The notes under the pieces are model-generated. The model had not been told where the DNA came from. It did no database searches and was given only the letters and a program-made list of their open reading frames with translations. The position numbers and the translations under genes were made by a program. Shown here one piece after another: positions 4,680 to 56,612 of a stretch of DNA of 64,000 nucleotides (positions are counted from its first letter, which is position 1; each line of letters opens with the position of its first letter). Source of the stretch: Syntrophales bacterium (GTDB lineage: Bacteria; Desulfobacterota; Syntrophia; Syntrophales; UBA2210); assembly GCA_963666365.2 (NCBI GenBank), contig CAXXNF010000002.1:2112001-2176000 (forward strand), read 5' to 3'.

Positions 4680-4789
4680 GTTTTTCTTCCACGCCTCCTT
4701 TTTTTGGAAATAGTGGTTGGAAATTGAACTATATTTTTTCTGAAATTACCACCATTTTCTTATACCATCTCCCGTTTTCGAAACAGCAT

Positions 4790-7958: not shown

Positions 7959-9284
7959 CTAACCGCCGAAGATTAATCTCGGTATCCACAGGGATATCTG
8001 CGGAAACAGGGACACAAGTATCAGGCCCACTGCCTGAAGAAGCACAAAAGGCACGATCGCCAGGTATATGTCCTTGATACCCACCCCTGCCGGGGCAATG
8101 CTCTTCAGGTAAAAGAGATTGTAACCGAAGGGTGGAGATATGTAGGCAATCTGCATATTCATGATGAAGATCACGCCGAACCACACGGGATCATATCCCA
8201 TCACATCCACGACGGGCATAATGATCGGCGCCGTGATCATCACGATGGCGCCCGGATCGAGGAGCATGCCCAGAGCGAAGAACATGATCTGAATCAGGAT
8301 GAAGACGCCCCAGTACCCGAAGGGCAGACCAGTCAAGAGGTTTCTGATGAAATCGGAGGCGCCCAGTGCCGTATAAATAGTGGCAAAACTGTAGGCGCCG
8401 ATGATGATCCACATGACCATTCCCGTAAGCCGCAACGTCCCCAGGGACACGCGCTTGAAAGAGCCCCAGTTCATCGTTCCGCTGAAGAGCATGAGCACAA
8501 GACTGCCGAAAGCGCCGATGGCCGATCCTTCCGTGGGGGTGCAGACGCCCCCGAAAATAGATCCCAGGACGACAAGGATGAGAATGATCGGGGGAATCAC
8601 TGTTTTGGTGGCCCGCATCTTCTGTATGAGGGACATCGTATCCCCTTCTTCATCTACCTTGCTCGGACCTAGTTCCGGTTTAATTTTGCAGGCAATCAAT
8701 ATGTAGGCAATGTACAGCAGCGCCAGAAGGATGCCCGGACCGATGCCGCCGGCAAAAAGCTGTCCCACCGAAACCTGGCAGATCATACCGTAGATAATCA
8801 TGACGATACTCGGCGGGATAAGAATTCCCAGCGCCCCGCCGGCGCCGATGCACCCGAGGGCAAGCCGTGTGTTATAGTTGCGGGAAAGCATCGCCGGAAG
8901 CGCAATGAGCCCCATGGTAATCGTACCGGCGCCTCCGATGCCCGTCATGGCGGCAAAGAGGGTACAGACAATGACTGCTGCCACGGCCAGCCCTCCGTTG
9001 ATGCGTCCACCCCATACATGCACTGCGGAGAAGAGCCGATCGGCCATGCCCGATTCCTGGAGCGCCGCCCCCATAAGAATAAACAGGGGAATGGCCAGCA
9101 GACCGAAGGACATCATGGCCTTGCCGAAAATAAGCGTGGGAATGACCCCAAGGGCGTAGGGACCCCAGAGGAATATCGTAAAGAGCACACCGATGGAACC
9201 GAGAATAAAGGCGATGGGGAGCCCCGATATCAAGCCAAGGACCATACAGGCAAAGAGCAGAAAGGTAATAGTGCTTATATCCAT
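7959..9284 (-). CDS. dctM: TRAP transporter large permease
   Basis: LLAIPLFILMG, LGILIPPSI, ISPPFG; about 12 TM. Confidence 0.92.
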   Translation of the reverse strand: MDISTITFLLFACMVLGLISGLPIAFILGSIGVLFTIFLWGPYALGVIPTLIFGKAMMSFGLLAIPLFILMGAALQESGMADRLFSAVHVWGGRINGGLAVAAVIVCTLFAAMTGIGGAGTITMGLIALPAMLSRNYNTRLALGCIGAGGALGILIPPSIVMIIYGMICQVSVGQLFAGGIGPGILLALLYIAYILIACKIKPELGPSKVDEEGDTMSLIQKMRATKTVIPPIILILVVLGSIFGGVCTPTEGSAIGAFGSLVLMLFSGTMNWGSFKRVSLGTLRLTGMVMWIIIGAYSFATIYTALGASDFIRNLLTGLPFGYWGVFILIQIMFFALGMLLDPGAIVMITAPIIMPVVDVMGYDPVWFGVIFIMNMQIAYISPPFGYNLFYLKSIAPAGVGIKDIYLAIVPFVLLQAVGLILVSLFPQISLWIPRLIFGG

Positions 9285-41643: not shown

Positions 41644-41741
41644 GGAAGTGCCAAGGTCACTGGTGGGCCTCCCGGACTTCAAATCCGGTGTGGGGGGCTA
41701 GTACCCTCCCAGGTGGGTTCGATTCCCATGCACTTCCGCCA
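41644..41741 (+). tRNA. selC: tRNA-Sec (UCA)
   Basis: GGAAGTG/CACTTCC acceptor stem with GCCA end, CCGGA-CTTCAAA-TCCGG anticodon arm, long variable arm, GTTCGATTC T-loop; TTGACA at 41605. Confidence 0.95.
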
Positions 41742-41806
41742 ATCATTTCAATATGTTAGCGTTCAGCTCCTTTTTAATGTCCACACCGGATTTATCCATT
41801 AGCACA

Positions 41807-42877
41807 TTATTGTGATAAAATTGTGATAGATTTTTGCGCTTCCTGCAAAACCGATTGTCGCTCCCTTGAAGCTTCATCGACTTTTTTTGCTGCAGAACGG
41901 AGATCCTCCTCGTTTATAATGTTGTATCGGTCAAATACACTCCTTGTCTTGTGACCGCTGATCTTCATTGCAACAACATCGGGAACTCCTGCTCTCGTCA
42001 TGTTTCGGACAGCTGTCCTTCGATTGTCATGCAAAAATCTCCCCACCAGCCCGGTCTTTTTACAGGCAGTATTCCAAGCTGCCTGGTAATTTCGAATCTG
42101 CTGCCCATCCCTAAAGAAGACGTAGGGACATTCCGGGTACTTTGTCTCCCTTATCTTCCACTGCAATAGAATCGTATCATAGAGTTCTCCTGTAAGAAAA
42201 ATCTCCCGACTTTCGCCATTTTTCGTCAACTCTGGAGGTAGCGTGATTTTTTCTTCAAACAGGTTGGTATGACACCATCGCAGATTAAGGATTTCCGATT
42301 TTCGCATCCCGGTAAAGTAGGCAATGGTCAAAACCGGTTTCATGTGAGCGGGTAAAGCATTTCGTAAACGAACGTACTCATCGTACTCAAAAAACCCTTG
42401 CCTGGGTTTGCTCTCCTTTAATTTCGGGATAAAAGGGGGATTCAGTACCCTGGGAGGACTTTGTCTCATCCCCAGCACAAAAATCCTGTTCAAGGCCGAG
42501 AGTTCCCTATTAATCGTCCCATTACTGGCCTTTTCTTCCTTTCTCAAAAGAATATAGTCATCTATAATACTTGATGTGATCTCAACAACTTTCATCCCGC
42601 CAAAGAAAGCTCCTAAGTGCTTAAGGCTTAATTCCGCACGATCCAGCGACCGCCTCTCGCGAATCTTATAATCTTTGATGAGTATATTGCTCAAGTCATC
42701 GAATGTTACCTTATCGAGATTCATATCGGGACGCTTTCCTTCCGCAATCTCGCCTTTCAATTTGTCAAAGATCCGCTGGGCCAGTTTTCGGTCTTCCGTC
42801 TCCGTTGACCGTCTGTACTGTTGCCCCTGATGAGTAAAACTCATCCACCAGACCGTTCCTCTCTTATAGAGCCCCAT
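41807..42877 (-). CDS. int: tyrosine integrase
   Basis: [24 protein letters not shown] catalytic set; RBS AAGGAGGT before MGLYKRG. Confidence 0.93.
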
Positions 42878-43235
42878 CTCTGACCTCCTTTCCGAGGCCC
42901 TTGATCCGGTCTGATTTCCCGTGATCGTCATGGTAATACTTTCCCTTTTCCTCGTCAATGGTCTTGCGGATGACCTTATCGAAGTTCCCGCCATTCCTGC
43001 TGACGGGCCCTCTTCTTCTTTTCTGCACATGCGGGTCTTTCGTTTCTCCACGCCGGTGTTCTTCCAGCCAGTCATCGACCTCTTCCATCCTGAAGCGAAT
43101 AAGTCGCCCGATGCGGTAATGAGGTATGTCTCCCGCTTCAACCTTCGCATACAATGTTTTCACTTTAACCCCGAGATATGCCGAAAGCTCTGATATCGTT
43201 AGCAAACATTGGGGTTCCTTTACTTTTCCTTCCAT
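42864..43235 (-). CDS. excisionase / HTH_17 DNA-binding protein
   Basis: [31 protein letters not shown]; overlaps int start. Confidence 0.85.
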
Positions 43236-43544
43236 TTTCGATGTCTCCCATCCGGGATCGGATGGTAATTGCATCGATGGCCACCAAACTGTCCGGCGGT
43301 CTGTGTCATGGTAATTGTTTCAAAAAAATCTGATCCCTGCTGTTGTGTGTTAGTCCCATGGAAAGAGCCCCGCCAGGGCTCTCCCCTCCTACGTTATGCT
43401 TACCCTTTTGCGCACCTCCTTTTATGTCAGTACCATATATTTATACATAGAGGGACAGAATGTCAATAACATATTGTATATACTATAATATACATCATTA
43501 TAACATTATTCTACCGATATATTATTGTTAATGTTAAAATCATC

Positions 43545-43574
43545 TTGACAACCAGATAGATGAGTAAATATAAT
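43545..43574 (+). promoter_or_regulatory. consensus sigma70 promoter, probably leaderless mRNA
   Basis: TTGACA-N18-TATAAT with ATG 8 nt downstream and no SD. Confidence 0.7.
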
Positions 43575-43582
43575 GCCCTATC

Positions 43583-44287
43583 ATGATTAATGAAAAAAAA
43601 GACATGTCACGGAAAAAAGACCTGAAAATCCTTATTGAGGATTACCTGGAGCGGGACATTCTGCAAATGGAAACCCTTTTTGACAGGCGAAGACATGACG
43701 CAACGGCACTTTTCAGCAGAATCTTCCAACTGCTGGGAGCACCAGAAATTGATGCTGACGACCTGACGCCTTATGAATTGAAGGAAACTGTCCTGGAATG
43801 GCATGGGCTCTTGTCGCCAATCTGGGGGAAAATTAAGAATGCTTTTCTTGATTATCGTAACCATGTTCTTCCAGAAAAAAGAACGCACCAACGTATGATT
43901 ACATCGGCACAAAATCCTTTGTCACCACTCAGCAAATACAGGGATCTAGTGGAACACACACCTGCCTTTCCCGAGGAAAAAACCTACGCCATAAAAGCTC
44001 GACGAATGCCAGTCACTATAAATCTTTCCTTCTCTTCCGAAAAATTTCATATCTCCATGGAGGGTCTCAGAATACTCGATAATTTTCTTCTTCATCTTAA
44101 GGATGTGCCCATAGAGAGCTTATATCCCTGCGACCACTGCGGGAAGATCATTGTGGCAACCAGAAAGGGAAAACGATATCATGCGGGATGTGCCGCCAAA
44201 GCGAAACAGAAAGAACGGTGGGAAAAAGATCCTGAAGGATGTCGCGAGAAAGAACGACAGCGATATCGGGAACGAAAAAAAACATAA
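43583..44287 (+). CDS. hypothetical protein with C-terminal CGNR-like zinc finger
   Basis: CDHCGK..KRYHAGCAAKAKQKER. Confidence 0.6.
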   Translation: MINEKKDMSRKKDLKILIEDYLERDILQMETLFDRRRHDATALFSRIFQLLGAPEIDADDLTPYELKETVLEWHGLLSPIWGKIKNAFLDYRNHVLPEKRTHQRMITSAQNPLSPLSKYRDLVEHTPAFPEEKTYAIKARRMPVTINLSFSSEKFHISMEGLRILDNFLLHLKDVPIESLYPCDHCGKIIVATRKGKRYHAGCAAKAKQKERWEKDPEGCREKERQRYRERKKT

Positions 44288-44454
44288 AGAATAAACAAGA
44301 GGTTCTGTAAATGCGATAAATACTGTCCGCATTGAAGTAAGGTCCCGATAAAAATTAAGAAAAATGGGATCCCGGTAATCTATGGAGGCATGGAGAAGGG
44401 TACAAAAGATGGAACGGAACGCTGTTGGGGTTTCCCATACCAGATGTGGGGTGA

Positions 44455-45525
44455 CTATTTCATTAAGTCCTTCTTCTGCTCTTCACTCCTCTTCTTGTAT
44501 GTCGCTGCATATGCGGCACATAAATTTGAGCAATACTCTTTATTAGCTTTGGGGAATTTTACGAAGAGCCTTTTCTGGCGACATGATTTGTTTCCGCAAA
44601 TGCCAAAATAATCGAGGCTGACGTGGGAAAACATCATCATAATTAGATGTGCTAACTCATTTTTCGCATTTGTAAACCTCTTTTTAAAGTTGTCATCGAG
44701 ATAAACATGCAGGCTGTGGTAATTGAAATCCTTTGTGGGCCTTTCTTTGCTCAAAATGTTCGGGAAATAGCATTCAATCAGTGAATATTCATCCAAGGCA
44801 ATCATTGCTTTAATGTCACTTATAATAGAATCGAGTAGTGAAAAAACATCTTCAACCCACAATTCAAATAACTTTATGTTGATCATAGGGTATCCGTTTC
44901 GTTTCTGATAGTGGAAATAGGCAACCACATCATTGGTTAACGTACGGAAAGCCTCTTGAACCTCCTGCTCAGAAACCCCGTCCAGAAGACTGTGCAGGAA
45001 ATCGTTGTCAGGTTTTTTAAACTCGCGTGCAAACTCTTCCTGCAACGTGTCCGCTTTGGCTTCCGAAAAACTTTCAATTCCCTTTTTCCTAAAATATAAC
45101 GACTCTAAAACTGCGTATTCTCTGATTTCCGGTTTTTCTAAAACACCGTCAGCAAGATTGAATGCCAGAACAACATCGTCGGGATTTGAAAAGTCAAAGT
45201 GGTCATTGTTATATATGTCGATAAAATGCTTTCGTGTGACTGGTGATGAAAACCAGGAATCAACCCGGTCGATGGAAGGTTTTTCCTGCAGATCGTACAA
45301 TGGTGCTCTTTTTCCTCGAAGGAATTTCCTGAAATTGACCACCATAGCCCTTGTCGGTCCCTCCCCCTCCTTTAAAAAGGGTGCATACAACATCCAAAAG
45401 GTTTGCATCTTGTCTATGAGGATAGCCCTCTTTTTCTGCGATCGTTTATTATCGTAATAAAATTGCTCGATTAGGAATTTCAGACCCCACAATTTTTGTG
45501 TCAGATGGCTATCGATCCCTTCCAT
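44455..45525 (-). CDS. hypothetical protein with C-terminal CGNR-like zinc finger
   Basis: CGNKSC..LF..KEYCSNLCAAYA..YKKR; ATG after AGGAG. Confidence 0.6.
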   Translation of the reverse strand: MEGIDSHLTQKLWGLKFLIEQFYYDNKRSQKKRAILIDKMQTFWMLYAPFLKEGEGPTRAMVVNFRKFLRGKRAPLYDLQEKPSIDRVDSWFSSPVTRKHFIDIYNNDHFDFSNPDDVVLAFNLADGVLEKPEIREYAVLESLYFRKKGIESFSEAKADTLQEEFAREFKKPDNDFLHSLLDGVSEQEVQEAFRTLTNDVVAYFHYQKRNGYPMINIKLFELWVEDVFSLLDSIISDIKAMIALDEYSLIECYFPNILSKERPTKDFNYHSLHVYLDDNFKKRFTNAKNELAHLIMMMFSHVSLDYFGICGNKSCRQKRLFVKFPKANKEYCSNLCAAYAATYKKRSEEQKKDLMK

Positions 45526-45587
45526 GTTTAATGAACTCCTCAAGTTTTTGCAATAGTTCGTTAAAAATAAATCAATATTATCAACTA

Positions 45588-45620
45588 GTTATTGACATTT
45601 AAAATCGAATGTCATATTTT
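45588..45620 (+). promoter_or_regulatory. promoter of rightward operon with overlapping palindromic operator
   Basis: TTGACA-N17-TATTTT overlapped by TGACATT-N8-AATGTCA. Confidence 0.6.
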
Positions 45621-45724
45621 TTCATTAAACACGGTTGCAACCATAAAATCAAGCAATTTGCCCCCTCACTTGAGGCAGAGGCAACCACATCAAGACCGAA
45701 ACAACGGTCAAGGAGAAAAGAGAT

Positions 45725-45952
45725 ATGTTTATGCACAAACACAAAATAGCAGCCATTAATGAACAACTGGCGTCCCGGCTGGGAAAAATGGACCCTACGG
45801 GACTTAGCATGAAGAGAAGAACTGAAACCATTCTGATCGATATGCTGGACAGATTACCACCTGGTTGGAATGCTCAGGACCCTGCCTGTACGGTGAAGTC
45901 GCGCAAGAGAAGAAGGCGTAGACGAGGACCTCGCGTTCTAACTTCCAACTAA
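45725..45952 (+). CDS. small protein with arginine-rich C-terminal motif
   Basis: RBS AAGGAG; KSRKRRRRRRGPR. Confidence 0.55.
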   Translation: MFMHKHKIAAINEQLASRLGKMDPTGLSMKRRTETILIDMLDRLPPGWNAQDPACTVKSRKRRRRRRGPRVLTSN

Positions 45953-45998
45953 AACGGATAAGTCATTATAACAGTCACCGAATTGATGGTCTCATAGG

Positions 45999-46110
45999 GA
46001 AAGGAGGTACAATTATGAAGATATAAGCATATCATCGGATCAGCACTAATTTAAAATTTATAGACACATGTGGGGCCGGTTTTTTTCTGTGAAAGCCGGC
46101 CCTTTTTATT
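45999..46110 (+). promoter_or_regulatory. SD-minigene(MKI*)-terminator module 1
   Basis: GAAAGGAGGT-6nt-ATG AAG ATA TAA (46015-46026); GGGCCGGT/GCCGGCCC stem + TTTTTATT. Confidence 0.6.
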
Positions 46111-46137
46111 AACCTGAAACAGGAAGGAGAAATAAAA

Positions 46138-47202
46138 ATGTCGAATGACGAAAATATTACGAACTTAGAAGTAGAAAACGAAGTCATCACGGATGAGAAC
46201 AATCAGCATAACATTCCTTCAGTCGATGTAAATCATGACTCGATAGAGCCCGAATCAGAATACTGGTCCTATATGGGTACCGATAGTACCGCTGTTAACG
46301 AAATTAGAATATGCAGTGTCGGTGAGGAATTGGATGATGCGGAGGGTTACGGAGAGCGAATCAATGCCTGGACCGGGGAACTTGAGGCAAACCTCGTCGA
46401 GGGTAGAACAAGGCCCATCAATGATTTACTAAGCGATGGGGTTACCATGGTCCGTGAAATATCAGCAGACGCCAACAGCCTGATCAACTCCGCGAACCGT
46501 GATTTTGCGAACCGGGCTATTCAAATCGGTATTCTCTGCATCAAACTCAAGAGCCTGCTTTCGGAATCCAAGAGAAAATGGGGCCCCTGGGCAGAGGAAA
46601 ACCTCCCTTTCATAGCCCGACGCAACCGTGAAAAATATATGCGGCTTGCGAAACGTAAAGATTGCTGGCCCTTCAGCTTCCTGGGCGTTGACCGTCTCGA
46701 TGAGCTCTGCGCGGCGACCGAAAAGATGTCAGGCGAGGATAGAATTGGAGATCTCTTTCGCACCTACGGGATCCCCTTCGATGAAGGCTCGGAACTCAAC
46801 ATGACCGAATTTCGGCTCAAGATCGACACTGCCATCGCCAATGAACGGCTTATCAAAAAAAGCATAACAATTGATCCTGCCCTGGTCGAGGCCGTGATTC
46901 GCCAGGGAATCGAAGTTGACGGCGCCCTTATTCGTCGGTTGTCGGACGCAATAAGTTCCGGCGGAAATCCATCCATGCTGCTTGAAAAAATTTCCCTTGA
47001 GGGCGGCCAGGAGCCACAGAGCAAGGCACCGGAAACGCGAGTCAGAGATTTTAATAGTCTTTCCAATAAGTTGATCAAAACGATTGAATTCATTGCGGGA
47101 GACAGGGACCATCTGGACAGAATCGACAGGGAGAGCCTGGAGAGGCTCCTGGAAAAACTTCAGGGTATTCTGGAGCAATTTCAGCCTGAAACGGTAGCGT
47201 GA
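46138..47202 (+). CDS. hypothetical protein with DUF3102-like domain
   Basis: AIQIGILCIKLK..KWGPWAEENLPFIARRNREKYMRLAK; acidic N-terminus. Confidence 0.55.
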   Translation: MSNDENITNLEVENEVITDENNQHNIPSVDVNHDSIEPESEYWSYMGTDSTAVNEIRICSVGEELDDAEGYGERINAWTGELEANLVEGRTRPINDLLSDGVTMVREISADANSLINSANRDFANRAIQIGILCIKLKSLLSESKRKWGPWAEENLPFIARRNREKYMRLAKRKDCWPFSFLGVDRLDELCAATEKMSGEDRIGDLFRTYGIPFDEGSELNMTEFRLKIDTAIANERLIKKSITIDPALVEAVIRQGIEVDGALIRRLSDAISSGGNPSMLLEKISLEGGQEPQSKAPETRVRDFNSLSNKLIKTIEFIAGDRDHLDRIDRESLERLLEKLQGILEQFQPETVA

Positions 47203-47215
47203 CTTTTAACAATCC

Positions 47216-47258
47216 GGCCCCTTACCGTCTCCGTAATGGTGGGGGGCCTTCACTTTTT
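47216..47258 (+). terminator. intergenic terminator-like hairpin
   Basis: GGCCCCTTACCGT/ATGGTGGGGGGCC then TTCACTTTTT. Confidence 0.55.
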
Positions 47259-47274
47259 ATAAGGAGATACAATC

Positions 47275-48156
47275 ATGAAATTTTACCAAGCCTCCATGAG
47301 TTTGCGAATTCTGCAGAGGTACTGGAAAGTATTCGGTGAGAAAGTCAATATCCTGCTCTCTTTTGCCTATGTCGGCTCTGACTTTTCGAACATTGTCACC
47401 AACTGTCGGCACATGGTGAAGGGACTCGTTCTCGATTCCGGTGCGTGGTCCGTTGCCACGGGTGTTGCCGACCTTTCGCTGCAAAACTACATGGCGTTCA
47501 CAAAACTCCATGGTCATCGCTTCGATCGATATTTCAATTTCGACACAGACTTCAGTGATAGCGGCTTTGATCACAACGTAGCCCACCAGCTGATCATGGA
47601 GCGGGAGGGACTTTCCCCAGTTCCCGTGGTTCACAATCTCTTTGACGGTGAGATCGATTATTATGTTCAGTCCGGCAGATATGACTATCTCGCGTTGGGT
47701 TCGAGCCAGACAACCAATTATGACGACCTGGCCTATGGGGTTCATCGAATCAAGAAGGCAAAGGAGGACATGAAAATTCACTGGTTCGGCGGCGGCAGGT
47801 ATGACTGGCTCAGCAGATTGCCCATAACATCCTGCGACACATCATCGTGGGCATCACTCGGCAAGTTCGGTTTCATCATGTACTGGAACCAGCATCAACC
47901 GGGGCCGAACAAGGCTGACAAAATATACGTCAGCGGCACAGTGCGACCGGTAAAGGAAGATGAGTTTCTCTACACCACCTATCCCTGGAGAGAGGAACTT
48001 GACCGCTACATTTTCACGGTCTTTGGGCTCACCTTTCATGATCTCTGTGCCTACGAGGGAGCCTTCAACATGCAGCTGATCAATACCAGGTTCTATGCGG
48101 AAATGGAAAAACGGATCAATGAGGAGCGGACCCGCCGGGGAATCGCACTGGAATAA
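47275..48156 (+). CDS. tRNA-guanine transglycosylase-like (TGT/DpdA-like) protein
   Basis: LVLDSGAWS, YFNFD, PVPVVH, YLALG, KIHWFG, SCDTSSW in TGT barrel order. Confidence 0.7.
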   Translation: MKFYQASMSLRILQRYWKVFGEKVNILLSFAYVGSDFSNIVTNCRHMVKGLVLDSGAWSVATGVADLSLQNYMAFTKLHGHRFDRYFNFDTDFSDSGFDHNVAHQLIMEREGLSPVPVVHNLFDGEIDYYVQSGRYDYLALGSSQTTNYDDLAYGVHRIKKAKEDMKIHWFGGGRYDWLSRLPITSCDTSSWASLGKFGFIMYWNQHQPGPNKADKIYVSGTVRPVKEDEFLYTTYPWREELDRYIFTVFGLTFHDLCAYEGAFNMQLINTRFYAEMEKRINEERTRRGIALE

Positions 48157-48288
48157 AAAACGCAGGAGTCTGCGCTTTTTAAATATTCAACGAAAGGAGG
48201 TATCATTATGGAATAACTATTATTGATACAAGTTGTTAGGACTACAATGGAAGTGGGACGTCTCCAGGAAGGGCGTCCCTTTTTTATT
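48157..48288 (+). promoter_or_regulatory. palindrome + SD-minigene(ME*)-terminator module 2
   Basis: ACGCAGGAGTCTGCG; GAAAGGAGGT-6nt-ATG GAA TAA (48208-48216); GGGACGTCT/GGGCGTCCC + TTTTTTATT. Confidence 0.6.
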
Positions 48289-48359
48289 CCAGCACCATGA
48301 ACAGCGGAAGCATCCGGCCTGGCGGACTCCTAGAAAAAAATACAGAAAGGATAAAACAA

Positions 48360-48908
48360 ATGTCAGGAAAAGTCTTTGATGACCTAAAAAGAATTTTCGA
48401 ACAAATTGGCATCCAGATGGACGATGAAGATGAATTGGTTAATTCGGTTTATACCTTAGTGGGCTTTTATGATTACAGAAAAGTTGAAATGTGTGTGGCA
48501 CTCGAACATCATTACTGGCCCCACTTTTCCAAAATCTGGATTGGCGAAATAACGGTGCCAATAGAAAAGATATCTGCTGCCTATGAGCTTATTAGCAGAA
48601 TCAATTCACTGCTTGTATATGATCATTTTAAAATCGACCCCGAAAGTGGTGAAATCGGATTGTATGCTGGTTTTTATAGTGGAATGGTCGGATGCGACGA
48701 AGATGAAGAGGAATTAAATGATGGTTTGGATACATATAGTTTTATGCATATCCGTATGTTGATTTATCAGATGATCCGACATTTTTCCCTTTTTTCACCA
48801 TTGTTTAACACATTAACTAAAACCGATAAGCTTCCATCTGTTATCATGGAAGAATTTTGGAACAAACTTTCCAAAAAAAATAAAGCTGAATTGAGAGAGT
48901 ATCTCTAA
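48360..48908 (+). CDS. YbjN-like (T3SS-chaperone fold) protein 1
   Basis: VPIEKISAAYELISRINS..HFKIDPESGEI; RBS GAAAGGA. Confidence 0.55.
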   Translation: MSGKVFDDLKRIFEQIGIQMDDEDELVNSVYTLVGFYDYRKVEMCVALEHHYWPHFSKIWIGEITVPIEKISAAYELISRINSLLVYDHFKIDPESGEIGLYAGFYSGMVGCDEDEEELNDGLDTYSFMHIRMLIYQMIRHFSLFSPLFNTLTKTDKLPSVIMEEFWNKLSKKNKAELREYL

Positions 48909-48950
48909 TAATCTTCCCAAAGGGACCATCGTGGAATACCGCTGGAATGA

Positions 48951-49096
48951 AAAACGCAGGAGTCTGCGTTTATTGAGAAAGGGGTGAGCGGATATATGAT
49001 TGCATGAAAACGGTTTTCGGTTAAGCAACTCAAATAATTCAGGTATACGCAATGATAAAGGGGATTGTCTCTCAAACGGGACGCCCCTTTTTTATT
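48951..49096 (+). promoter_or_regulatory. palindrome + SD-minigene(MIA*)-terminator module 3
   Basis: ACGCAGGAGTCTGCGT; GAAAGGGGTG-9nt-ATG ATT GCA TGA (48996-49007); GGGGATTGTCTC/GGGACGCCCC + TTTTTTATT. Confidence 0.55.
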
Positions 49097-49127
49097 GCCA
49101 TTAATCAAAGAAAGGTAGGATTTTGAA

Positions 49128-50123
49128 ATGAATAAGATGAATAAGTTTACCGCTAAAGACAAACAGATCTTCGATGACATGAAGCAATGCGTCAAGGATC
49201 TCGGATTAAAAATTGTTGATGAGTATGTGGAGGAAGGGGTTCTTTTGGGAATGTCTACGTTTGAATACCCAGGTTACAACTTGGGGATCTTTTTTTCCTA
49301 TACCCCGTCAACGAATATGGCGTCGGTGGTTTTGGGGTATGCAGATATACCGGTTGAGAAGCTTCCAGCTCTGTATGATTTGCTAAACCGCATTAACGGA
49401 CACCTGATAGGCAACCACTTTTCTATCAATCCTGAACTTAGGATTCTTCTCATGCATTCAGGCATGGAAGTGACTGGCTACTTCCTCGATAAAGCGGCAT
49501 TTATGGGTATCCTTGGACATGATCTCGGCTCAGGACATACGTTTATGCCCTTGATTGGCAAGGTCCTGGCGAGTGATCAAACACCCCAGGCGGTGATGGA
49601 GGAATTTATGAAACAAAAACACAAGATGCCTCGTACCCTGTTTATGCAGGATGGGACGCTCAGAGTGGAACAGGAGGCAGAGGATCTTCCATTCTTCATA
49701 CATGTGTATAAAGATATGCCTGCTTTTCCCACCCACACCCATGGCCTCACAGAACTGGGCATGCCAGAGTTTTTAATGGATCCTCTTTCATTTGGTCAAA
49801 AGGGAACGTACACGCTCGTCATTGTGTCGTACAACTATTTCAGCTGTCCCGAGAATAAAGCTAAGCTGGAAGCCATTATGAATGGGAAAATTGTCAAATT
49901 GACGCACCGTGACCTGGCGCCTGACGGATGCGGTGAAGACCCTTACGTCTATTGCTACCGCAGGGTCTATCCAGAGTTCGAGATGGTCAGGCAAGCATAC
50001 AACATCGACGAGGAAAAGGAACAATCAGACGCCTCTCCGGAAGTGTGTTTTGTCCAGATCTACGTTGAGGGAGATGATCATGTCTTGACTGACGATTACT
50101 ACAAGGGCGGGGTTATGTGGTAG
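49128..50123 (+). CDS. YbjN-like protein 2 with extra C-terminal domain
   Basis: IPVEKLPALYDLLNRINGH..FSINPE; C-terminal THTHGLTELGMPEF (DUF4261/4262-like). Confidence 0.55.
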   Translation: MNKMNKFTAKDKQIFDDMKQCVKDLGLKIVDEYVEEGVLLGMSTFEYPGYNLGIFFSYTPSTNMASVVLGYADIPVEKLPALYDLLNRINGHLIGNHFSINPELRILLMHSGMEVTGYFLDKAAFMGILGHDLGSGHTFMPLIGKVLASDQTPQAVMEEFMKQKHKMPRTLFMQDGTLRVEQEAEDLPFFIHVYKDMPAFPTHTHGLTELGMPEFLMDPLSFGQKGTYTLVIVSYNYFSCPENKAKLEAIMNGKIVKLTHRDLAPDGCGEDPYVYCYRRVYPEFEMVRQAYNIDEEKEQSDASPEVCFVQIYVEGDDHVLTDDYYKGGVMW

Positions 50124-50142
50124 GGTAATCAAAAACTAATAC

Positions 50143-50189
50143 ATGACAAAGGGGATCGATCGTGCCCGAGATTGATCCCCTTTTGTCAT
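50143..50189 (+). terminator. intergenic hairpin
   Basis: ATGACAAAGGGGATC / GATCCCCTTTTGTCAT. Confidence 0.65.
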
Positions 50190-50220
50190 TTCAGCACTTT
50201 CAGAAAGGAAGGAAAAGACA

Positions 50221-51249
50221 ATGAGTAAAAAGAAAAATAAACAAGGCAATAAGGTCGTAAGGGACTTGAAGGAATGTTTCCGGTCCTTCAATCTACCCGT
50301 CAATAAACTCAAAGGCAATCATGACGATCCCATGAATGTCGTCTTCACCTCTCAGCTCTGTAATGACCAGGCCTGCGCATTTGTAGCCGTTACGTTTGAT
50401 AGGTTTAGAGGATATATCGGCATGGACGCCGCCGCCCTTCGCTTTAAAATTCCTCAAGAGAGAATGGGAGAGACATTGACGCTGTTAAATCTGCTCAATG
50501 AAATCAGGCCTATCTGCAGCTATTCGGTTTGCCCCTGCTGCAATACCGTGTCATATAGGACAGCTTTGTTTCTCTCTGGTGAGACCCTTCCTGTGAGTAA
50601 ATTCAGAAGGCTTATCCAGGATATGCTTGAAGAGACATACCTCTGTTTCCCGTTGATATCCAAAGTGGCCACAGATGGCAATCCCAAGGATCTTCATGCT
50701 CGGTTTATGGATGACCATAAACATCTGATGAGCATGGAAAGTAAGTTGTCCCAAAAAGCAATAAAGCAGATTCTTGATGACATGGGGCAGGTTATGGCCA
50801 ACCTCAAAATACCGATTCATGAGAGGCTCTCTGACGGTTTTGTCACGGATCTCATGCTTGAAGGCATGGATTTTCCGGTCCGTATCGGCGTTACACTGGT
50901 AAAAGAATATGAATTGGTCACGCTGAGCGTTGGACCAGCCTTTACCGTTCCAGATGACAAGATTCCCGTAATGTTGGATTTGGTGAACCGGATCAATAGA
51001 GCGTCCGAGCCAGATCATATGTTCATTAACCAGCAATCAAAGCGGGTGATCCTTGTCAACGGGATTCTGATCGACAATGGCACCTTTGATAAAAGGGAGT
51101 TAGAATTGTCGCTTCAAATCCTGCTGGGAAAAGGAAGGTTAGTCTTTCACACTATCAATGAGCAGCTTTCTTCCAATGAAAGCCCAGAAGATCTTTTCGA
51201 AAAGACGATAAAATATCACGAGAAGATCATCGAGAATCAGAACGTTTAG
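50221..51249 (+). CDS. tandem double YbjN-like protein 3
   Basis: IPQERMGETLTLLNLLNE and VPDDKIPVMLDLVNRINR repeats. Confidence 0.55.
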   Translation: MSKKKNKQGNKVVRDLKECFRSFNLPVNKLKGNHDDPMNVVFTSQLCNDQACAFVAVTFDRFRGYIGMDAAALRFKIPQERMGETLTLLNLLNEIRPICSYSVCPCCNTVSYRTALFLSGETLPVSKFRRLIQDMLEETYLCFPLISKVATDGNPKDLHARFMDDHKHLMSMESKLSQKAIKQILDDMGQVMANLKIPIHERLSDGFVTDLMLEGMDFPVRIGVTLVKEYELVTLSVGPAFTVPDDKIPVMLDLVNRINRASEPDHMFINQQSKRVILVNGILIDNGTFDKRELELSLQILLGKGRLVFHTINEQLSSNESPEDLFEKTIKYHEKIIENQNV

Positions 51250-51254
51250 TTGAT

Positions 51255-51936
51255 TCTGGAAACCCACACCCTGTGGGTGTGGTCATGTGGGATTGGCTGT
51301 GCCAGTCCCGAATGGGTATGGCCAAATAGGCCGCCCACTGCTATCCTTGCTCAGAGTTGTTAGCCACAACAAAAGAGCAAGGAGGAAGCAGTGAGCAGAT
51401 TTCACAAGTTATCACATACGATATGGCATTGTCAGTACCATATTGTATGGGTTCCGAAATACAGATACCGGATTCTGACAGGTGCTGTTCGGGATGCGAC
51501 AGAGGCGGGGATTCAAGCGATATGCGGTTATGCAGGGTGCGAAGTAATCGAGTTAAACGTACAACGTGATCATGTACACCTTGTGGTAATGATACCGCCC
51601 AAGCTGTCGATATCGAATTTGATGGGTCGCGTTAAGGGACAGACATCAATGAAGATGTTTCATCAATTTCGGGAATTGCGGAAGAAGCCCTATTGGGGGA
51701 ATCATTTTTGGGCAAAAGGATATTGTGTTGACACAGTTGGACTGAATGCCGAGATGATTCGGAAGTATGTCCGGTATCAGGAGAAAAAAGAGAAGCAGGA
51801 AGAGCAACTGAGGTTAGATTAAGAGCACAGAGACATGCGGCACAACTCGCTATGCCTCGCCCCCTCTGGGGGCAGAGGCACAATCCCCCTATGGGGGATA
51901 AATTAAAGCCGCGTCCTGTGGGCGCGGATTATTTAC
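51255..51936 (+). mobile_element. IS200/IS605-family element (tnpA only); ends approximate
   Basis: Subterminal hairpins CCACACCC-TGT-GGGTGTGG (51264) and CCGCGTCC-TGT-GGGCGCGG (51909) flanking tnpA. Confidence 0.85.
51391..51822 (+). CDS. tnpA: IS200 Y1 HUH transposase
   Basis: YHIVWVPKYR, DHVHL, FWAKGY, IRKYVRYQ. Confidence 0.95.
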   Translation: MSRFHKLSHTIWHCQYHIVWVPKYRYRILTGAVRDATEAGIQAICGYAGCEVIELNVQRDHVHLVVMIPPKLSISNLMGRVKGQTSMKMFHQFRELRKKPYWGNHFWAKGYCVDTVGLNAEMIRKYVRYQEKKEKQEEQLRLD

Positions 51937-51939
51937 ACT

Positions 51940-51979
51940 AAAAGGGGCTCATACTTTACGTCTGGTATGGGCCCCTTTT
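51940..51979 (+). terminator. terminator hairpin
   Basis: AAAAGGGGCTCATAC / GTATGGGCCCCTTTT. Confidence 0.65.
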
Positions 51980-52129
51980 ACATCCTATTGTCAGATTACG
52001 GAAAGACCATATTAAAATTAGCTTAGAATCTCAAAGAAACAATCCCGCACTGATCTGTCTCTCACCATAGAACAAACTAATGAAGGATCATTTTCCTTTA
52101 ATTATATTTTATGAAGGAGGAATCGAACT

Positions 52130-52315
52130 ATGAAGACAGCCTGTTTTACAAAAGCGTTAACCGTAGCCTTTACCGAAGACATTTACCTGAAAATCAAGGA
52201 AATAACCGATGAGAAAAATATTTCCATGGGGGAATGGGTGCGAATCGCAGCGGAAAGGGAATTGAACAATAACGAGTATATCAAATGTATTTCTGGAGGA
52301 ATCAAGCATGACTAA
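52130..52315 (+). CDS. small RHH/CopG-like DNA-binding protein
   Basis: LTVAFTEDIYLKIKEIT..ISMGEWVRIAAE; RBS AAGGAGG; overlaps primase start. Confidence 0.6.
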   Translation: MKTACFTKALTVAFTEDIYLKIKEITDEKNISMGEWVRIAAERELNNNEYIKCISGGIKHD

Positions 52316-54647
52316 ATTTATATCAGACAAAGAGACTTTCATTACAATGGCATCTGATTTTTTCAACGAACTTTTTGAACCAGCGTTTAATAGCGAGTGC
52401 GGTGATATCGAAATCAGGACATTCAAACCATCACCTCAACAGAACTTTTACAAATCGGAGCATGAAGCCGCTGAAAGAGCGTTCGATTTATGCAACCGGG
52501 GCATTGATGTGTATTTCGGAGTGAATCCGCGAACCGGCAATGCTGGAAAAAAAGAGAACATCCAGTATGTGAGTGCATTCCACGCGGAAATCGATTACGG
52601 CGAAACAGGTCATAAAAAAGATACACCCCATAAGACGTATGAAGACGCCTTAAATGCTATAGAATCCTTCAACCCGGAACCAACCATTATTATCCACAGC
52701 GGCGGCGGCTTTCATTGTTACTGGGTATTGAGCAATCCCGTAAAGGTCGATGCCATTGGATGTCAGATTCTGGAAAGCATCAATAAAAATCTGTCGGAAA
52801 AACTGGGAGGCGATCGGGGAACACAGGACATTACACGGGTGCTGCGAGTGCAAGGTACATACAATTTTAAAATAATGGACAATCCGCGACCAGTAATGCT
52901 CATATCCAACAGTCATAAGAAGTATGAGTATGAGGAGTTCAGGACATTCATACCCACCGAACATGCAGTCGCAAGCGGCATACCAGACACCGGCAAAAAT
53001 CTTCAGACACACCGCCCAGTTGCGCATGTTGAGCCCTCACAACTGTCGTTTGATATAGAGAACTTGCCTGTTTCGAGTAAAATAAAGTCGCTTATTAAGA
53101 ATGGCAATGACGGCAGGTATACATCAAGAAGCGAAGCAGACATGGCGGTGGTAATTGCTCTGGTGAATAAAGGGGTGAATACAGAAAATATCAAACAGAT
53201 ATTTCTCAACTGTGGCATCGGTGAAAAATACAGGGAGCATCGCTCAAAAGACGACTATTTGAACCATACCATTGAACAGGCAAAAAAATACTCTGATCTT
53301 ACCGAAGAAGAGAGGACAGACCCGCTTTTCATTACAAACGCGCTTTTAAAAACAGATGGGAGATATCGACTCAACATTCTGAAATTTCAAGAATACATGG
53401 TCAGAAAATACCGTATAGTCATTCTTGACCGTGAACAGGCAATGTTCCGCTATACAGGTAAATGCTATGAACAGATAACAGATAAGGCCCTTAATAATCT
53501 CTGCCAGAGGGAACTGAAGGACCATAGAAATCTCTTTTCCCGGTCGTCTCTTTCAGAATTCATCCATTACGCCGTGGGAGAAACACTGGCCGACAGCGAG
53601 AAGGTGAAGCAGGAGCAGGTCAATTACCTGACAATGCAAAACGGCATCTATGAATTTGACCGTGGGAGATTATTGCCCCGTACCCCAAAAATCTTCACAA
53701 CGAATCTTCTGCCTTTTGAATACGACCCCAATGCTAAATGCACCAGATTCATACAGTTTCTTAATGAAGTATTCGAAGGTGAGCAGGAAAAGATCCGTTT
53801 CGTACAGGAAGCTGTGGGGTACATCTTTCACAAGTCCATTCCCACCCCTGCGGTCTTTTTCCTTATCGGGTCAGGCAGCAACGGCAAGTCGGTTTTCATT
53901 AACACCATATCCAGCCTGGTAGGAAAGGAGAATACAAGCAACGTCAGCTTCAACCTCCTTTCCGACGAGACCTACATTCTTGAGCTTTATCAGAAGATGA
54001 TCAACATCTCCGGTGAAACCCCTCATGCAAAAACGATCGATACAGATGTGATTAAAGCGGTGACGGCTGGCGATTGGGTTACGGGAAGAGAGCTTTACAA
54101 ACCGCCCATGAAATTCCGACCTTTTGCTAAAAGCTTTTTAGCTATGAATAATCTGCCCACAATAAAAGATACCTCGCATGGTATGTGGCGGAGAATATGG
54201 GTTGTCACTTTTCCCAAAAAATTTGAAGAACATGAGATGGATCGACAGCTGGAAGAAAAACTCACGAAGGAGTTATCAGGCATCTTTAACTGGGCGCTTG
54301 AGGGGTACAGTAGATTAAAAGGAAACGGTTTTTCTTTACAGGAAAGCGATTCCATGAAACTGGAGAAGAAGTCTTACCGGATAAGTGCCGACAGTGCCAG
54401 AGAATTCATTAGTGAATATCTTGCTCCTTCGAGTGATGAAAATGCACGAATTAAACTTAGTGTGCTCTATAACCACTATAAAGACTGGTGTAATTCACAA
54501 AGATCAAAAGATGTTAAAAATAAAAATGAATTCAAAATAATACTTGAAGATATGAAATATTATGTAGACAACTCTTCAAAAGACAATAATCAAGTTCATG
54601 CATTCAATGTTGTTTTTAAAGAGAATATAAAAAATATTATTGTATAA
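52308..54647 (+). CDS. primase-helicase (RepB-like primase + P4/D5 SF3 helicase)
   Basis: VYFGVNPR, AEID, SGGGFHCYW, RVLRV; GSGSNGKS, KAVTAGD, MWRR. Confidence 0.88.
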   Translation: MTKFISDKETFITMASDFFNELFEPAFNSECGDIEIRTFKPSPQQNFYKSEHEAAERAFDLCNRGIDVYFGVNPRTGNAGKKENIQYVSAFHAEIDYGETGHKKDTPHKTYEDALNAIESFNPEPTIIIHSGGGFHCYWVLSNPVKVDAIGCQILESINKNLSEKLGGDRGTQDITRVLRVQGTYNFKIMDNPRPVMLISNSHKKYEYEEFRTFIPTEHAVASGIPDTGKNLQTHRPVAHVEPSQLSFDIENLPVSSKIKSLIKNGNDGRYTSRSEADMAVVIALVNKGVNTENIKQIFLNCGIGEKYREHRSKDDYLNHTIEQAKKYSDLTEEERTDPLFITNALLKTDGRYRLNILKFQEYMVRKYRIVILDREQAMFRYTGKCYEQITDKALNNLCQRELKDHRNLFSRSSLSEFIHYAVGETLADSEKVKQEQVNYLTMQNGIYEFDRGRLLPRTPKIFTTNLLPFEYDPNAKCTRFIQFLNEVFEGEQEKIRFVQEAVGYIFHKSIPTPAVFFLIGSGSNGKSVFINTISSLVGKENTSNVSFNLLSDETYILELYQKMINISGETPHAKTIDTDVIKAVTAGDWVTGRELYKPPMKFRPFAKSFLAMNNLPTIKDTSHGMWRRIWVVTFPKKFEEHEMDRQLEEKLTKELSGIFNWALEGYSRLKGNGFSLQESDSMKLEKKSYRISADSAREFISEYLAPSSDENARIKLSVLYNHYKDWCNSQRSKDVKNKNEFKIILEDMKYYVDNSSKDNNQVHAFNVVFKENIKNIIV

Positions 54648-54659
54648 TGTAATACTTTT

Positions 54660-54940
54660 TTCCCAAAAGATTAAAAAGAGATTAATTCCCAGCATAAACA
54701 TTAATCAGTAATAGCTGAATATAATAAAATGGTTAAACCGAAAGATTAATAGATTAATTCTTTTTTATATTATTTGTTGCAAATAAAAAACAATATTATA
54801 AATATAATATAAATTATAAATAAAAAATAAAAGATAGGAAATTACATTAATCTGTTAATTTTTACCAGAACACAGTAATAATATTAATGATTTTAGATTA
54901 ATGGATTGTATATTTATTTAATCTCTTTTTAATCTGACTG
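54660..54940. other. candidate replication origin of the element
   Basis: 18-bp perfect IR AGATTAAAAAGAGATTAA (54668/54918), many ATTAA units, very AT-rich core. Confidence 0.7.
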
Positions 54941-55200
54941 TTTCCTCAGAGAAATATTGTCCTTCATGAGTTTTTCAAAAAATAGTACAATAATAGTAAT
55001 GTAAGAACCCTTAAGCAAATTTTGGCAAAAAAAAGAAAAGACAAAACAATATGAAATAGTTTACCTTCAAATATTGAAACTTAAAACCAACAACACTGAA
55101 TTAAAACGACTCCTTTTCCGGTAATTCGATTGATCCCCGATACTGTTTTGACTTTAAAAGAGCATCTTAAAGAACTTATAAATGCCCAGAAAAACCGAAA

Positions 55201-55590
55201 ATGACTATCACTGCACGTTTCCTTCAACACCCCCTGGGAGAGCTTTTTGCTCATAACCTTCTATCGAAGAGCTATGACTGGTTGGATAACCGGTTTTATC
55301 GCCTCCCCAATAATGCCCAGGTTTTCTATAGAAGGTTTTTGATCCACAATGACTATAAGAGTATCCCCCTGAAAATCGAGACGATTATAGAAGCATTAAA
55401 CCTCGTTGACAAAAATATCACCAACCTGACCGGAACAATAGAAACGAATATCCTGAAGCCGCTCATGGACCAGGGATTAATCGATTCCTATGAGAAAAAG
55501 AGGGATGGTCTCTACGGTTTGAAGTTCATAATTAAGCGATCGAAAAATTCAGTACCCGTTGAGATTGACCTTCAACAGCCGTCAAGTTGA
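55201..55590 (+). pseudogene. truncated plasmid Rep (TrfA/RepA-like) C-terminal winged-helix fragment
   Basis: AQVFYRRF..IPLKIETIIEALNL..LKPLMDQGLIDSYE; no SD; iterons follow. Confidence 0.45.
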
Positions 55591-55598
55591 GATGGATT

Positions 55599-55657
55599 GA
55601 GGGTCTGTAAAACTTTAATCGAGGGTCTGTAAAACTTATATCGAGGGTCTGTAAAAC
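55599..55657 (+). repeat. three iterons, 22-bp period
   Basis: GAGGGTCTGTAAAAC at 55599, 55621, 55643; AAGATATAAT repeats at 55704-55730. Confidence 0.85.
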
Positions 55658-56380
55658 GGAAACCGATTTAAACCTTTCAGATTGGTTAGGATCTCAAAAA
55701 TACAAGATATAATAAGATATAATAAGATATCTTAATACCGGAACCCCTCCCTTTGGGTCGGGTTTCCTCGGGGACCATATAGTTATATTTTTGTAGTTAG
55801 GGAAAAATGGTTATGGAGATATGAATATTCATACAAGAAGATTGGTCATGCATTACTAAAGGAATTGGTCAAGAGGAAATTATGGGGTAATAGATTTATA
55901 GTAATGAAGAATGGGTAAACATTACTTGTGAGATTGGTCGTACACACCATGGGGTTTACTTGTAAGAAATACAAAACTATAACAAATAAAAAATGGTGAG
56001 AGAAGAAGAGTGGTCGGTTGCTGCTTTTATCTACTGTTTACTTCATGCTGCTGGTGGGTATACTGAAACAATACCCTCTGAAGTCTATCTCATGTCTTCC
56101 AGGAAAGAAGATCTGTGGGAAAGTGGAATGGATCGCGAAGGGTTCCCATGGTAGTAGCGTCCGTTATTACAGCAGGAGTAATGGGTCCCGGTTTCGCGCG
56201 CCGCCTGATGGGATCGTGAGCCTCATTGAGGGAGACCGTCCGTACTGTCGAGCATTCACCATCCCGGGACTTCTCAGGTTGTCTCTCCGGTGAGTTCTGC
56301 CGCATCGTATATATGGGGTTGGATTATGAATGAACGAGTGCTGACATCAAAGCAGGAAGGTTTGAGAGGGGAGGGCAAAT

Positions 56381-56396
56381 ACGCAGGAGTCTGCGT
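56381..56396. repeat. third copy of ACGCAG-GAGT-CTGCGT palindrome
   Basis: Identical 16-mer to the copy at 48954. Confidence 0.85.
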
Positions 56397-56612
56397 TTTT
56401 AGCTGTTTTCACCATGAGCATCGGGCAGAATGGATGGACGTATTGAACATTCTCCGAGACTATCGAAAGTACCTCTGCAAATAAACGAGATCATTCCGAA
56501 ATAACGACCGTTTTTCGCCGTTCTTGATATTTACAATGAATTTTGGGCGAATTCGGGAAGGCGTTGGAATGAAAGGGATATGTGTTGCGGAGTACACCTC
56601 TAAAGCCTCAGC

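Follow-up and report, generated by a model that had tools for sequence, protein, structure and literature searches.

Between positions 45999 and 49096 of the 64,000-nucleotide stretch of Syntrophales bacterium DNA analysed here (hereafter the window), an integrated element carries three copies of a short module consisting of a strong Shine-Dalgarno (SD) sequence, an ATG, one or two sense codons and a stop (together a mini-ORF, for open reading frame), an A/T-rich spacer and an intrinsic terminator. Dozens of related elements show this layout too and, judged by what those elements keep and what they let drift, it looks selected. Our preferred reading, to which we give a probability of roughly 35%, is that the modules act in cis, as a ribosome parked at gene-cassette junctions that would control the fate of the RNA.

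A handful of isolated examples (lambda bar, the LEE1 leader and axe-txe) is what is known of two-codon minigenes, and so far it has been hard to say whether they are selected or accidental. Regulatory and toxic minigenes are a known kind, while a conserved, repeated and terminator-linked family at the cassette seams of mobile elements has not been described as far as the literature we searched goes; we found no published description of the module family in that literature, which left out most subscription journals. The drift of the codons, while start, stop and SD stay, is evidence from comparison that a function under selection can consist in translating almost nothing. At about 100 nt the unit is also compact and directly testable in reporters.

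Three modules and their relatives

The modules of the window are named 1 to 3 and fall into two positions, A and B, that are defined further below.

45999-46111, plus strand: module 1, position A, leader of the ORF354-ORF293 operon; SD GAAAGGAGGT at 45999-46008, ATG-AAG-ATA-TAA at 46015-46026, A/T-rich spacer, stem at 46072-46103, then TTTTTATT
48192-48288, plus strand: module 2, position B, after ORF293; SD GAAAGGAGGT at 48192-48201, ATG-GAA-TAA at 48208-48216, spacer, terminator at 48255-48279, then TTTTTTATT
48977-49096, plus strand: module 3, position B, at the second junction; SD GAAAGGGGTG at 48977-48986, ATG-ATT-GCA-TGA at 48996-49007, spacer, terminator at 49060-49087, then TTTTTTATT

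An earlier note on this DNA had placed three modules at these positions, and all three can be read there directly. Each has T5-6ATT as its 3' end, and the gap from stop to hairpin is 45 nt in module 1, 38 nt in module 2 and 52 nt in module 3. Module 1 matches the covariance model R2, in whose training set it stands, at E 1.3e-6, and a profile of the 3' half matches modules 2 and 3 at E 1.2e-8 and 1.8e-8.

The 16S gene of this genome ends in ...GGATCACCTCCTTTCT, and the module SD is a run of 10-12 contiguous bases complementary to that 3' end: GAAAGGAGGT here, (A)GAAAGGAGGTG or GGAGGTGATCC in relatives, with AGGAGGTGATGCNTATG as the common motif. The consensus GAAAGG(A/G)GGT that the note had given for all three describes modules 1 and 2 and fails for module 3, whose SD reads GAAAGGGGTG; it has four matches in the window (modules 1 and 2 and two unrelated minus-strand sites), where shuffles lead one to expect 0.35. 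The note had also held these SDs to be stronger than those of the genes downstream. By predicted energy this is so for module 1 (-15.7 versus -11.2 kcal/mol for the next gene) and module 2 (-16.0 versus -8.4), whereas module 3 is about level with its neighbour (-10.7 versus -10.6). Across the family described next, the predicted energy averages -12.8 kcal/mol for modules and -8.7 for the genes that follow, and the module has the stronger SD in 49 of 53 comparisons.

Relatives were found through ORF293, the DpdA-like gene that ends just before module 2. A search with this single protein returned no relatives in genome contigs, in viral contigs or in related genomes (0/60); metagenomes gave at least 200 homologues. 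From 37 of these metagenomic homologues an alignment (A1) was made and used to fetch related loci: 10 genome loci, mostly from metagenome-assembled genomes labelled Syntrophales or 'delta proteobacterium', and 80 metagenome loci. The contigs stem from anaerobic-digester and wetland samples, and the hosts are uncultured. No relatives appeared when viral contigs were scanned with the A1 alignment, and an exact scan of viral contigs with the 19-mer of hp1, the small hairpin behind ORF293, gave 0 matches. Scanning all loci yielded 75 modules, 54 of them distinct, numbers that come from related sequences; the layout recurs in at least 40 distinct related elements.

The distinct modules divide evenly between two conserved positions. 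Position A (type A modules, like module 1) lies upstream of an ORF354 homologue and holds 27, 24 of which have exactly two sense codons, as in ATG-ATT-GCA-TAA, ATG-AAT-GTT-TAA, ATG-CGT-GAA-TAA and ATG-AAC-GAA-TAG. Position B (type B, like modules 2 and 3) follows an ORF293 homologue or lies between cargo genes and likewise holds 27, 22 of them with a single sense codon, among them ATG-CGC-TGA, ATG-TGC-TGA, ATG-AGC-TGA, ATG-AGA-TGA, ATG-AAC-TGA, ATG-CGA-TAA and ATG-ACT-TAA. The stop is TAA in 18, TAG in 5 and TGA in 3 type A modules, and TGA in 18 and TAA in 9 of type B, and the ATG keeps a constant spacing from the SD. A type A module stands in at least 21 of the 50 distinct regions upstream of ORF354 homologues, a count that misses a few, such as L011 and L041. 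Behind the stop of the ORF293 homologue, many relatives show the same series: hp1 comes first, then a purine-rich SD and an ATG with a single codon before its stop, and after 60-75 nt a terminator. Where the ORF293 homologue is about 51% identical to that of the window or less, the module is mostly absent, and behind hp1 comes the next gene or a further hairpin. On the sequences at hand, the modules are a family specific to tRNA-integrating, primase-encoding elements of Syntrophales-like bacteria that carry the ORF354/DpdA-like operon.

The clustering in the window is far above the density of the genome at large. A scanner for the layout, set to require an SD that pairs with the 16S tail at -9 kcal/mol or better, then an ATG, no more than five sense codons, a stop and, within 115 nt, a terminator, finds 55 sites on the two strands of the 4.0-Mb genome, and three of them fall within 3.1 kb here, against about 0.04 expected from the genome-wide density. 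Of the 55, 21 have an SD of -10.5 or better and only 4 one of -13 or better, modules 1 and 2 being two of the 4. Among 20,000 ATGs drawn at random from the genome's contig C2, 2.0% have an SD of -9.5 or better, and a stop follows within one or two sense codons at 7.1% or 11.5% of 13,930 ATGs in the related loci; such an SD and so early a stop would combine at about 1 ATG in 500 by chance.

Run on the window's own genome, the covariance models of both types, R1 and R2, return only the three training modules and one weak partial match (E 0.67). Over 151 genomes of the order, R2, the type A model, matches 26 at E up to 0.01; the 11 loci inspected comprise two true modules (L096, L097), a degenerate one without ATG (L099) and eight plain terminators, and L096, L097 and L099 all adjoin ORF354/ORF293 homologues. 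The suggestion that this may be an undescribed RNA element agrees with Rfam, in which no family matches the modules: at the gathering threshold the whole window returns tRNA-Sec only, and a scan of 45900-49200 at E up to 10 gives six matches that are all far below gathering, the best being STnc40 on hp1 with 25.1 bits against 45.

Conservation of the tiny frame and of the cassette seams

Profiles built with nhmmer from the post-stop part alone (spacer and terminator) provide a test that does not depend on the mini-ORF. They locate 42 distinct sites, 16 of type B and 26 of type A, and an SD with a frame of at most five sense codons lies just upstream of 16/16 type B and 22/26 type A sites, or 38 in total. 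Among the exceptions, L024 has TTG in place of ATG, L014 has ATG-TGT-TAG nearer to the SD, and L011:4710 and L023:189 look decayed. L009 is counted among the 22 by virtue of an upstream ATG, its canonical position reading TTG-ATT-GCA-TAA. L018 and L069 are without the usual TATG, and there an upstream in-frame ATG gives ATG-TAA and ATG-CAA-ACG-AGC-TAA.

In sets anchored on the ATG, which keep 23 type A and 17 type B sequences after filtering at 80% identity, the SD carries about 0.95 bits of information per base, against 0.5-0.66 for the sense codons and 0.3-0.6 for the flanks; at ATG and stop the figures prove nothing, because they are fixed by how the sets were chosen. The sense codons span 14 amino acids while SD, start and early stop persist, and these three are kept even in lineages whose spacers cannot be aligned and whose ORF293 is 51-66% identical to that of the window. 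The earlier note had argued for selection from a layout kept amid differing spacers, and had named a lack of conserved spacing in homologues among the findings that would refute it; in the homologous elements the spacing of SD, ATG and stop is indeed conserved. We infer from this pattern that selection acts on the capture of a ribosome followed by its immediate release.

Position B modules stand next to hp1, which occurs at two places among the modules of the window.

48161-48174, plus strand: hp1, CGCAG-GAGT-CTGCG plus T-run, directly after the ORF293 stop
48930-48974, plus strand: second junction copy, in which the final 20 nt of ORF293 survive as a remnant ahead of hp1 (stem 48955-48968), downstream of ORF182

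The genome has three copies of hp1, all in this element, and the hairpin (consensus GCGCAGGAGTCTGCG) is kept after ORF293 homologues with some compensatory changes. In position B the SD begins within about 12 bases of hp1 in most loci and up to about 45 in the L030-type group. The second junction copy, repeat D3, shares 84% identity over 45 nt with the first. Pairs of hp1 and module recur between unrelated cargo genes in the window and in L009, L023, L026 and L039, and a remnant of ORF293 (its last 8-20 bases) precedes the second copy in 3 of the 6 pairs compared, namely in the window, in L023 (~3843-3920) and in L039 (~8120-8190). The unit of ORF293 3' end, hp1 and module has been duplicated around cargo and therefore marks seams of cargo exchange, which would explain the swapping of cargo beside the DpdA-like DNA-modification operon. 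The third hp1 copy, AAATACGCAGGAGTCTGCGTTTTT at 56377-56400, lies near the right end of the low-GC stretch and has no SD or mini-ORF after it.

A comparable arrangement is the promoter/stem-loop PeSL, which is found at the cassette boundaries of T4-type phages and carries a promoter. Both are short regulatory units repeated at the borders of exchangeable accessory genes; unlike PeSL, the modules carry an SD and a tiny frame and no recognisable promoter.

Duplication at junctions also invites the reading that a module is a recombination scar or empty cassette, the remnant of a gene (start region, 3' untranslated region and terminator) that junction exchange has kept and whose tiny frame goes unused. 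The ORF293 3'-end remnants just described would fit such a history, as would the decayed copies (4 of the 26 type A sites) and the resemblance of the SD-ATG of modules 1 and 2 to the real start of ORF293 (repeat D5). In L009, L010 and L079, moreover, the SD after hp1 opens a real long gene, which suggests that a module was made from the start region of a gene plus a terminator. We nevertheless consider this reading very doubtful. The modules do not look like plain scars, because SD strength, ATG and early stop outlast the alignable spacers around them, at flanking ORF293 identities of 51-66%; frame length is fixed by position; lost ATGs have been replaced by another in-frame ATG, as in L018 and L069; and the combination of such an SD with so early a stop is the 1-in-500 event given above.

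A further reading dispenses with translation altogether and takes the purine-rich 'SD' and the TATG...stop as a promoter, or as a protein-binding DNA or RNA motif of a small RNA gene. Sigma-70-like -35/-10 matches do overlie module 2 (48178-48206, 9/12) and module 3 (48973-49000, 10/12), but the -35 boxes (TTGAGA, TTTAAA) are lost in relatives where complementarity to the 16S tail is kept, the promoter scan gives 25 sites against 19.1 expected, barely above chance, and the start and stop triplets hold their frame and spacing. We rejected a promoter in place of the SD for want of a conserved -35 in relatives, and we regard the reading as a whole as highly improbable. In the related loci, no conserved promoter was found between hp1 and the SD or between the T-run and the next gene.

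A proposed parked ribosome and competing readings

How a parked ribosome might arise can be pictured from the geometry of the module. With one or two translocations and 8 nt between SD and ATG, the helix formed by SD and rRNA need not break at any point through start and stop; if it stays unbroken, the site would therefore be occupied much of the time, its ribosome in effect parked. Such a ribosome would be an obstacle to RNases that scan from the 5' end, would insulate the terminator from what lies upstream, and would determine how stable the junction RNA is, and likewise the mRNA that reads through into the next gene. The module, being repeated together with hp1, would also mark the seams of cargo exchange. 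Passages of PMC9943677 count bound ribosomes among the obstacles to RNase E scanning, and passages on the LEE1 leader (PMC3262186) and on axe-txe (PMC8708949) describe two-codon minigenes with a positive effect in cis on the next gene.

These two minigenes are among the closest known systems. As those passages portray them, the LEE1 minigene (PMC3262186) and mg2 of axe-txe (PMC8708949) share with the modules an SD, an AUG, one sense codon and a stop before a co-oriented gene; codon identity is unimportant there, the act of translation matters, and they are proposed to influence how the next cistron is expressed or how stable it is. The modules have this two-codon leader-minigene layout too, with one sense codon in 22/27 at position B and a same-strand gene after 53/54. 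Unlike LEE1 and axe-txe, they are repeated and portable, occur at several junctions per element and are conserved over dozens of elements; their SD is far longer, and a terminator and 90-170 nt separate them from the next gene.

Several points weigh against a parked ribosome. The 90-170 nt from the mini-ORF stop to the next start are far beyond the distance-critical spacing in the LEE1 and axe-txe precedents, and with a strong terminator between mini-ORF and next gene a stabiliser would help read-through transcripts only. The module is not essential to this type of element, because relatives whose ORF293 is about 51% identical or less manage without it, and the module counts overstate the number of independent events because the sequences are related. 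A role like that of a stabiliser SD or of a cis-acting minigene is nonetheless plausible.

The stabiliser in question is STAB-SD of Bacillus thuringiensis cry3A, a 5' mRNA stabiliser that lies near the 5' end and has no start codon. The modules resemble it in their GAAAGGAGG-type sequence and in their predicted ability to bind a ribosome without making protein; unlike STAB-SD they conserve an ATG and a stop, at 38/42 of the independently found sites.

We advance more tentatively a wider proposal, in which the module is a portable ribosome trap. An SD of 10-12 bases would hold a ribosome through a full start-to-stop cycle on a frame of two or three codons, ahead of a terminator at every cassette seam, and the trap would either gate read-through into the cargo and replication genes by the host's supply of free ribosomes or, once freed, serve as a small RNA that soaks up ribosomes. 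If true, this would be a new class of RNA device of mobile elements, and the first minigene family with comparative evidence of selection.

The terminator deserves separate attention, since it is the sole conserved helix. RNAalifold finds compensatory changes in 7/11 of its pairs in type A and 3/11 in type B, and the 3' part of each module fits an intrinsic terminator, with a G+C-rich covarying hairpin and then a T-run. Type A terminators are lengthened by pairing of an A-tract with a T-tract and of CGGAAA with TTTCCG, and in these predicted folds they look bidirectional. With the 3' arm of the terminator removed, module RNA is no more stable than shuffles, and upstream of the terminator there is slightly less structure than in shuffles (mean z +0.49, z > 0 in 39/54). 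Motifs in the spacer are conserved within types, GCGG...GGCGGAAA in type A and GATGA...GCGG in type B. The gene on the same strand that follows 53 of the 54 modules has its own SD, at a median of 48 nt past the start of the T-run.

A frame followed by a terminator and genes recalls attenuation gated by translation. A fast-loaded ribosome might trail RNA polymerase and alter termination, or restart at the next gene by sliding or coupling; alternatively, an antiterminator of the element might act on the spacer motifs. Read-through to the cargo and replication genes would then report the translational capacity of the host. The downstream genes, which start a median of 48 nt past the beginning of the T-run, would depend on read-through because they have no recognisable promoter of their own; several gates follow one another before the primase gene is reached; and the spacer is unstructured and A/U-rich, with motifs conserved within types. 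However, RNAalifold shows no conserved alternative pairing, and the terminator forms unconstrained, at a predicted probability of 0.76-1.0 in 52 of the 54 modules (the exceptions being L048 at 0.49 and module 3 of the window at 0.17). The stop, about 25-50 nt before the hairpin, leaves the ribosome footprint short of it, and a longer leader frame would suit coupling better than one of two or three codons. No antiterminator gene was identified, and a gene of about 150 codons that precedes type A modules has no Pfam match. We judge attenuation of this general kind unlikely.

The classical form of attenuation, which the earlier note had listed as a ribosome-dependent possibility, found no support. 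The trp, his and pyrBI attenuators rely on regulatory codons, on overlapping antiterminator and terminator helices, and on a ribosome that reaches the structure. The modules share with them a leader frame and then an intrinsic terminator before the genes, but have one or two arbitrary codons; they are no classical attenuators, because there is no alternative helix and the stop is about 25-50 nt from the hairpin.

The same note had also raised tRNA sequestration, and with it an RNA that works in trans in the manner of lambda bar or CreT. The module would be processed out and retranslated, and would sequester ribosomes, initiator tRNA or peptidyl-tRNA, whether to slow the host for takeover, for addiction or for abortive defence. 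The toxicity of bar minigenes goes with an extreme SD, a frame of two or three codons and an A/U-rich sequence after the stop, features that the modules share; hp1 on the 5' side and the terminator on the 3' side would give a stable small RNA, and each element has multiple copies. The codons speak against such an RNA. With the usage of this genome as proxy for the other hosts, the last sense codons are not rare (mean 18.0 per thousand versus 16.4 for all 61 codons; mean relative synonymous codon usage 1.0), and no particular tRNA appears to be targeted, because they span 14 amino acids; sequestration of the bar or CreT kind is thus unsupported. The SD is preceded by no conserved promoter, no partner antitoxin or CRISPR-like repeat was seen, no cas family was found among the 12 element ORFs scanned with Pfam, and the position of 53/54 modules directly before a co-oriented gene fits a role in cis. 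A trans-acting RNA is, in our estimate, distinctly unlikely.

The individual precedents differ from the modules in instructive ways. Lambda bar uses the codon AUA and is known through its toxicity in Pth-deficient hosts. Like the modules it is a mobile-element-borne series of SD, AUG, one codon and stop, A/U-rich after the stop, and module 1 ends in ATA-TAA just as bar uses AUA; unlike that codon, those of the modules are diverse and not rare, and we know of no evidence of selection for bar as strong as for the modules. CreT, in passages of PMC8501985, combines a strong SD with a start, a few codons and a stem-loop in one small RNA, much as the modules do, and it uses specific scarce-tRNA codons and is paired with the CRISPR-repeat-derived creA beside cas genes. 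In the modules, by contrast, the codons are not scarce, and the element offers neither a cas gene among the 12 ORFs scanned nor a creA-like repeat.

Three other candidates were tried and rejected. A preQ1 or other riboswitch, which came into view with the DpdA-like ORF293, has no Rfam match and no conserved aptamer-like structure. A ribosome shunt over the hairpin is at odds with distances that vary too much, both from stop to helix base (0-58 nt) and from helix to next ATG. Pairing of the SD with a terminator arm as antiterminator would comprise only 4-6 bp as counted by eye, in an ensemble that the terminator is predicted to dominate. To an explanation outside all those considered here we assign a small probability.

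The host element and its other genes

The modules sit in a low-GC stretch (0.34-0.49 against about 0.52) that starts directly after the tRNA-Sec gene at 41644-41737, and the element is integrated at tRNA-Sec. Some 76 kb further on and outside the window (C2:2229904-2229978) lies a 75-nt copy of the 3' part of tRNA-Sec, 97% identical; the island (41644-56400) may be composite or tandem, although the low GC stops near 56000. Pfam identifies a tyrosine integrase and an HTH_17 excisionase-like protein (xis), and the element also encodes ORF75, ORF354, ORF293, the cargo genes ORF182, ORF331 and ORF342, a small ribbon-helix-helix-like ORF and a D5_N/DUF5906 primase-helicase. The genes from ORF75 through the primase are all co-oriented, and each from ORF75 to ORF331 has a hairpin and T-run on its 3' side. 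Those that flank the modules are as follows.

46138-47202, plus strand: ORF354, conserved partner gene upstream of ORF293
47275-48156, plus strand: ORF293, DpdA / queuine-tRNA-ribosyltransferase-like, the anchor for finding relatives
48360-48908, plus strand: ORF182, cargo gene between modules 2 and 3
49128-50123, plus strand: ORF331, cargo gene after module 3; in relatives, position-B modules usually have its homologue as their next gene

ORF293 has a match at E 1.1e-21 to phrog_887, a phage family labelled 'queuine tRNA-ribosyltransferase', and on that ground is taken as a DpdA-like enzyme; its alignment profile finds nothing meaningful among solved structures. ORF354 has no family match. 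A homologue of ORF354 always precedes that of ORF293, and the two may form a two-gene 7-deazaguanine DNA-modification unit of these elements. Of the three cargo genes only ORF342 has a Pfam match, to YbjN, and the three cross-match weakly in tblastn.

Upstream of module 1, ORF75 (45725-45952) has an arginine-rich C-terminal tail, KSRKRRRRRRGPRVL, and a 97-aa ORF at the same position in L047 (3282-3575) has a similar ending, RNRKRGPRPVL; ORF75, which stands immediately ahead of module A, may be a regulator that binds RNA. In 13 loci a conserved protein family ends 27-145 nt before the type A module (L008 4246-4692, L033 1868-2353, L018 755-1243 and ten more); its members are mostly 134-168 aa (about 150) long, with one 66-aa fragment in L069. 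In L041 (~4650-4760) and L027 (~890-1000), TGTGTCC repeats and then a further terminator immediately precede the type A module, in a region that may be an operator.

Two relatives, L046 (4271-4282) and L086 (1797-1808), have a mini-ORF in frame with the end of a D5-type primase ORF and with a shared stop; with frame and stop in common, the SD and ATG there lie inside the last codons of a real gene. Two more conserved hairpins (for example GAGAACTTTATGAAAGTTCTC) occur in leaders of ORF331 homologues just before the SD of the gene, where about 95 nt separate the terminator of module B from the gene in L002, L003, L015, L006, L011 and L026.

On the minus strand, the earlier note had pointed to a similar SD before xis. 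The site exists (AAAAGGAGGTG at 43413-43423, without a start codon), but in 7/7 relatives examined the matching region is without it, and it does not belong to the module family. It lies about 15-20 nt past a good minus-strand promoter match upstream of xis, TTGACA-17-TAAATA as judged by eye, a placement like that of STAB-SD; although not conserved, it is a closer look-alike of STAB-SD than the modules are.

Further along the element, the region 54650-55666 consists of a very AT-rich stretch, then a 129-aa ORF that is conserved in many related elements, and then three 22-bp direct repeats (55596-55666), and is probably a replication origin with iterons. Directly after ORF342, at 51250-51940, stands an insertion of the IS200/IS605 type with a 143-aa TnpA-like ORF (51391-51822), of which contig C1 carries two further copies, 89-91% identical.

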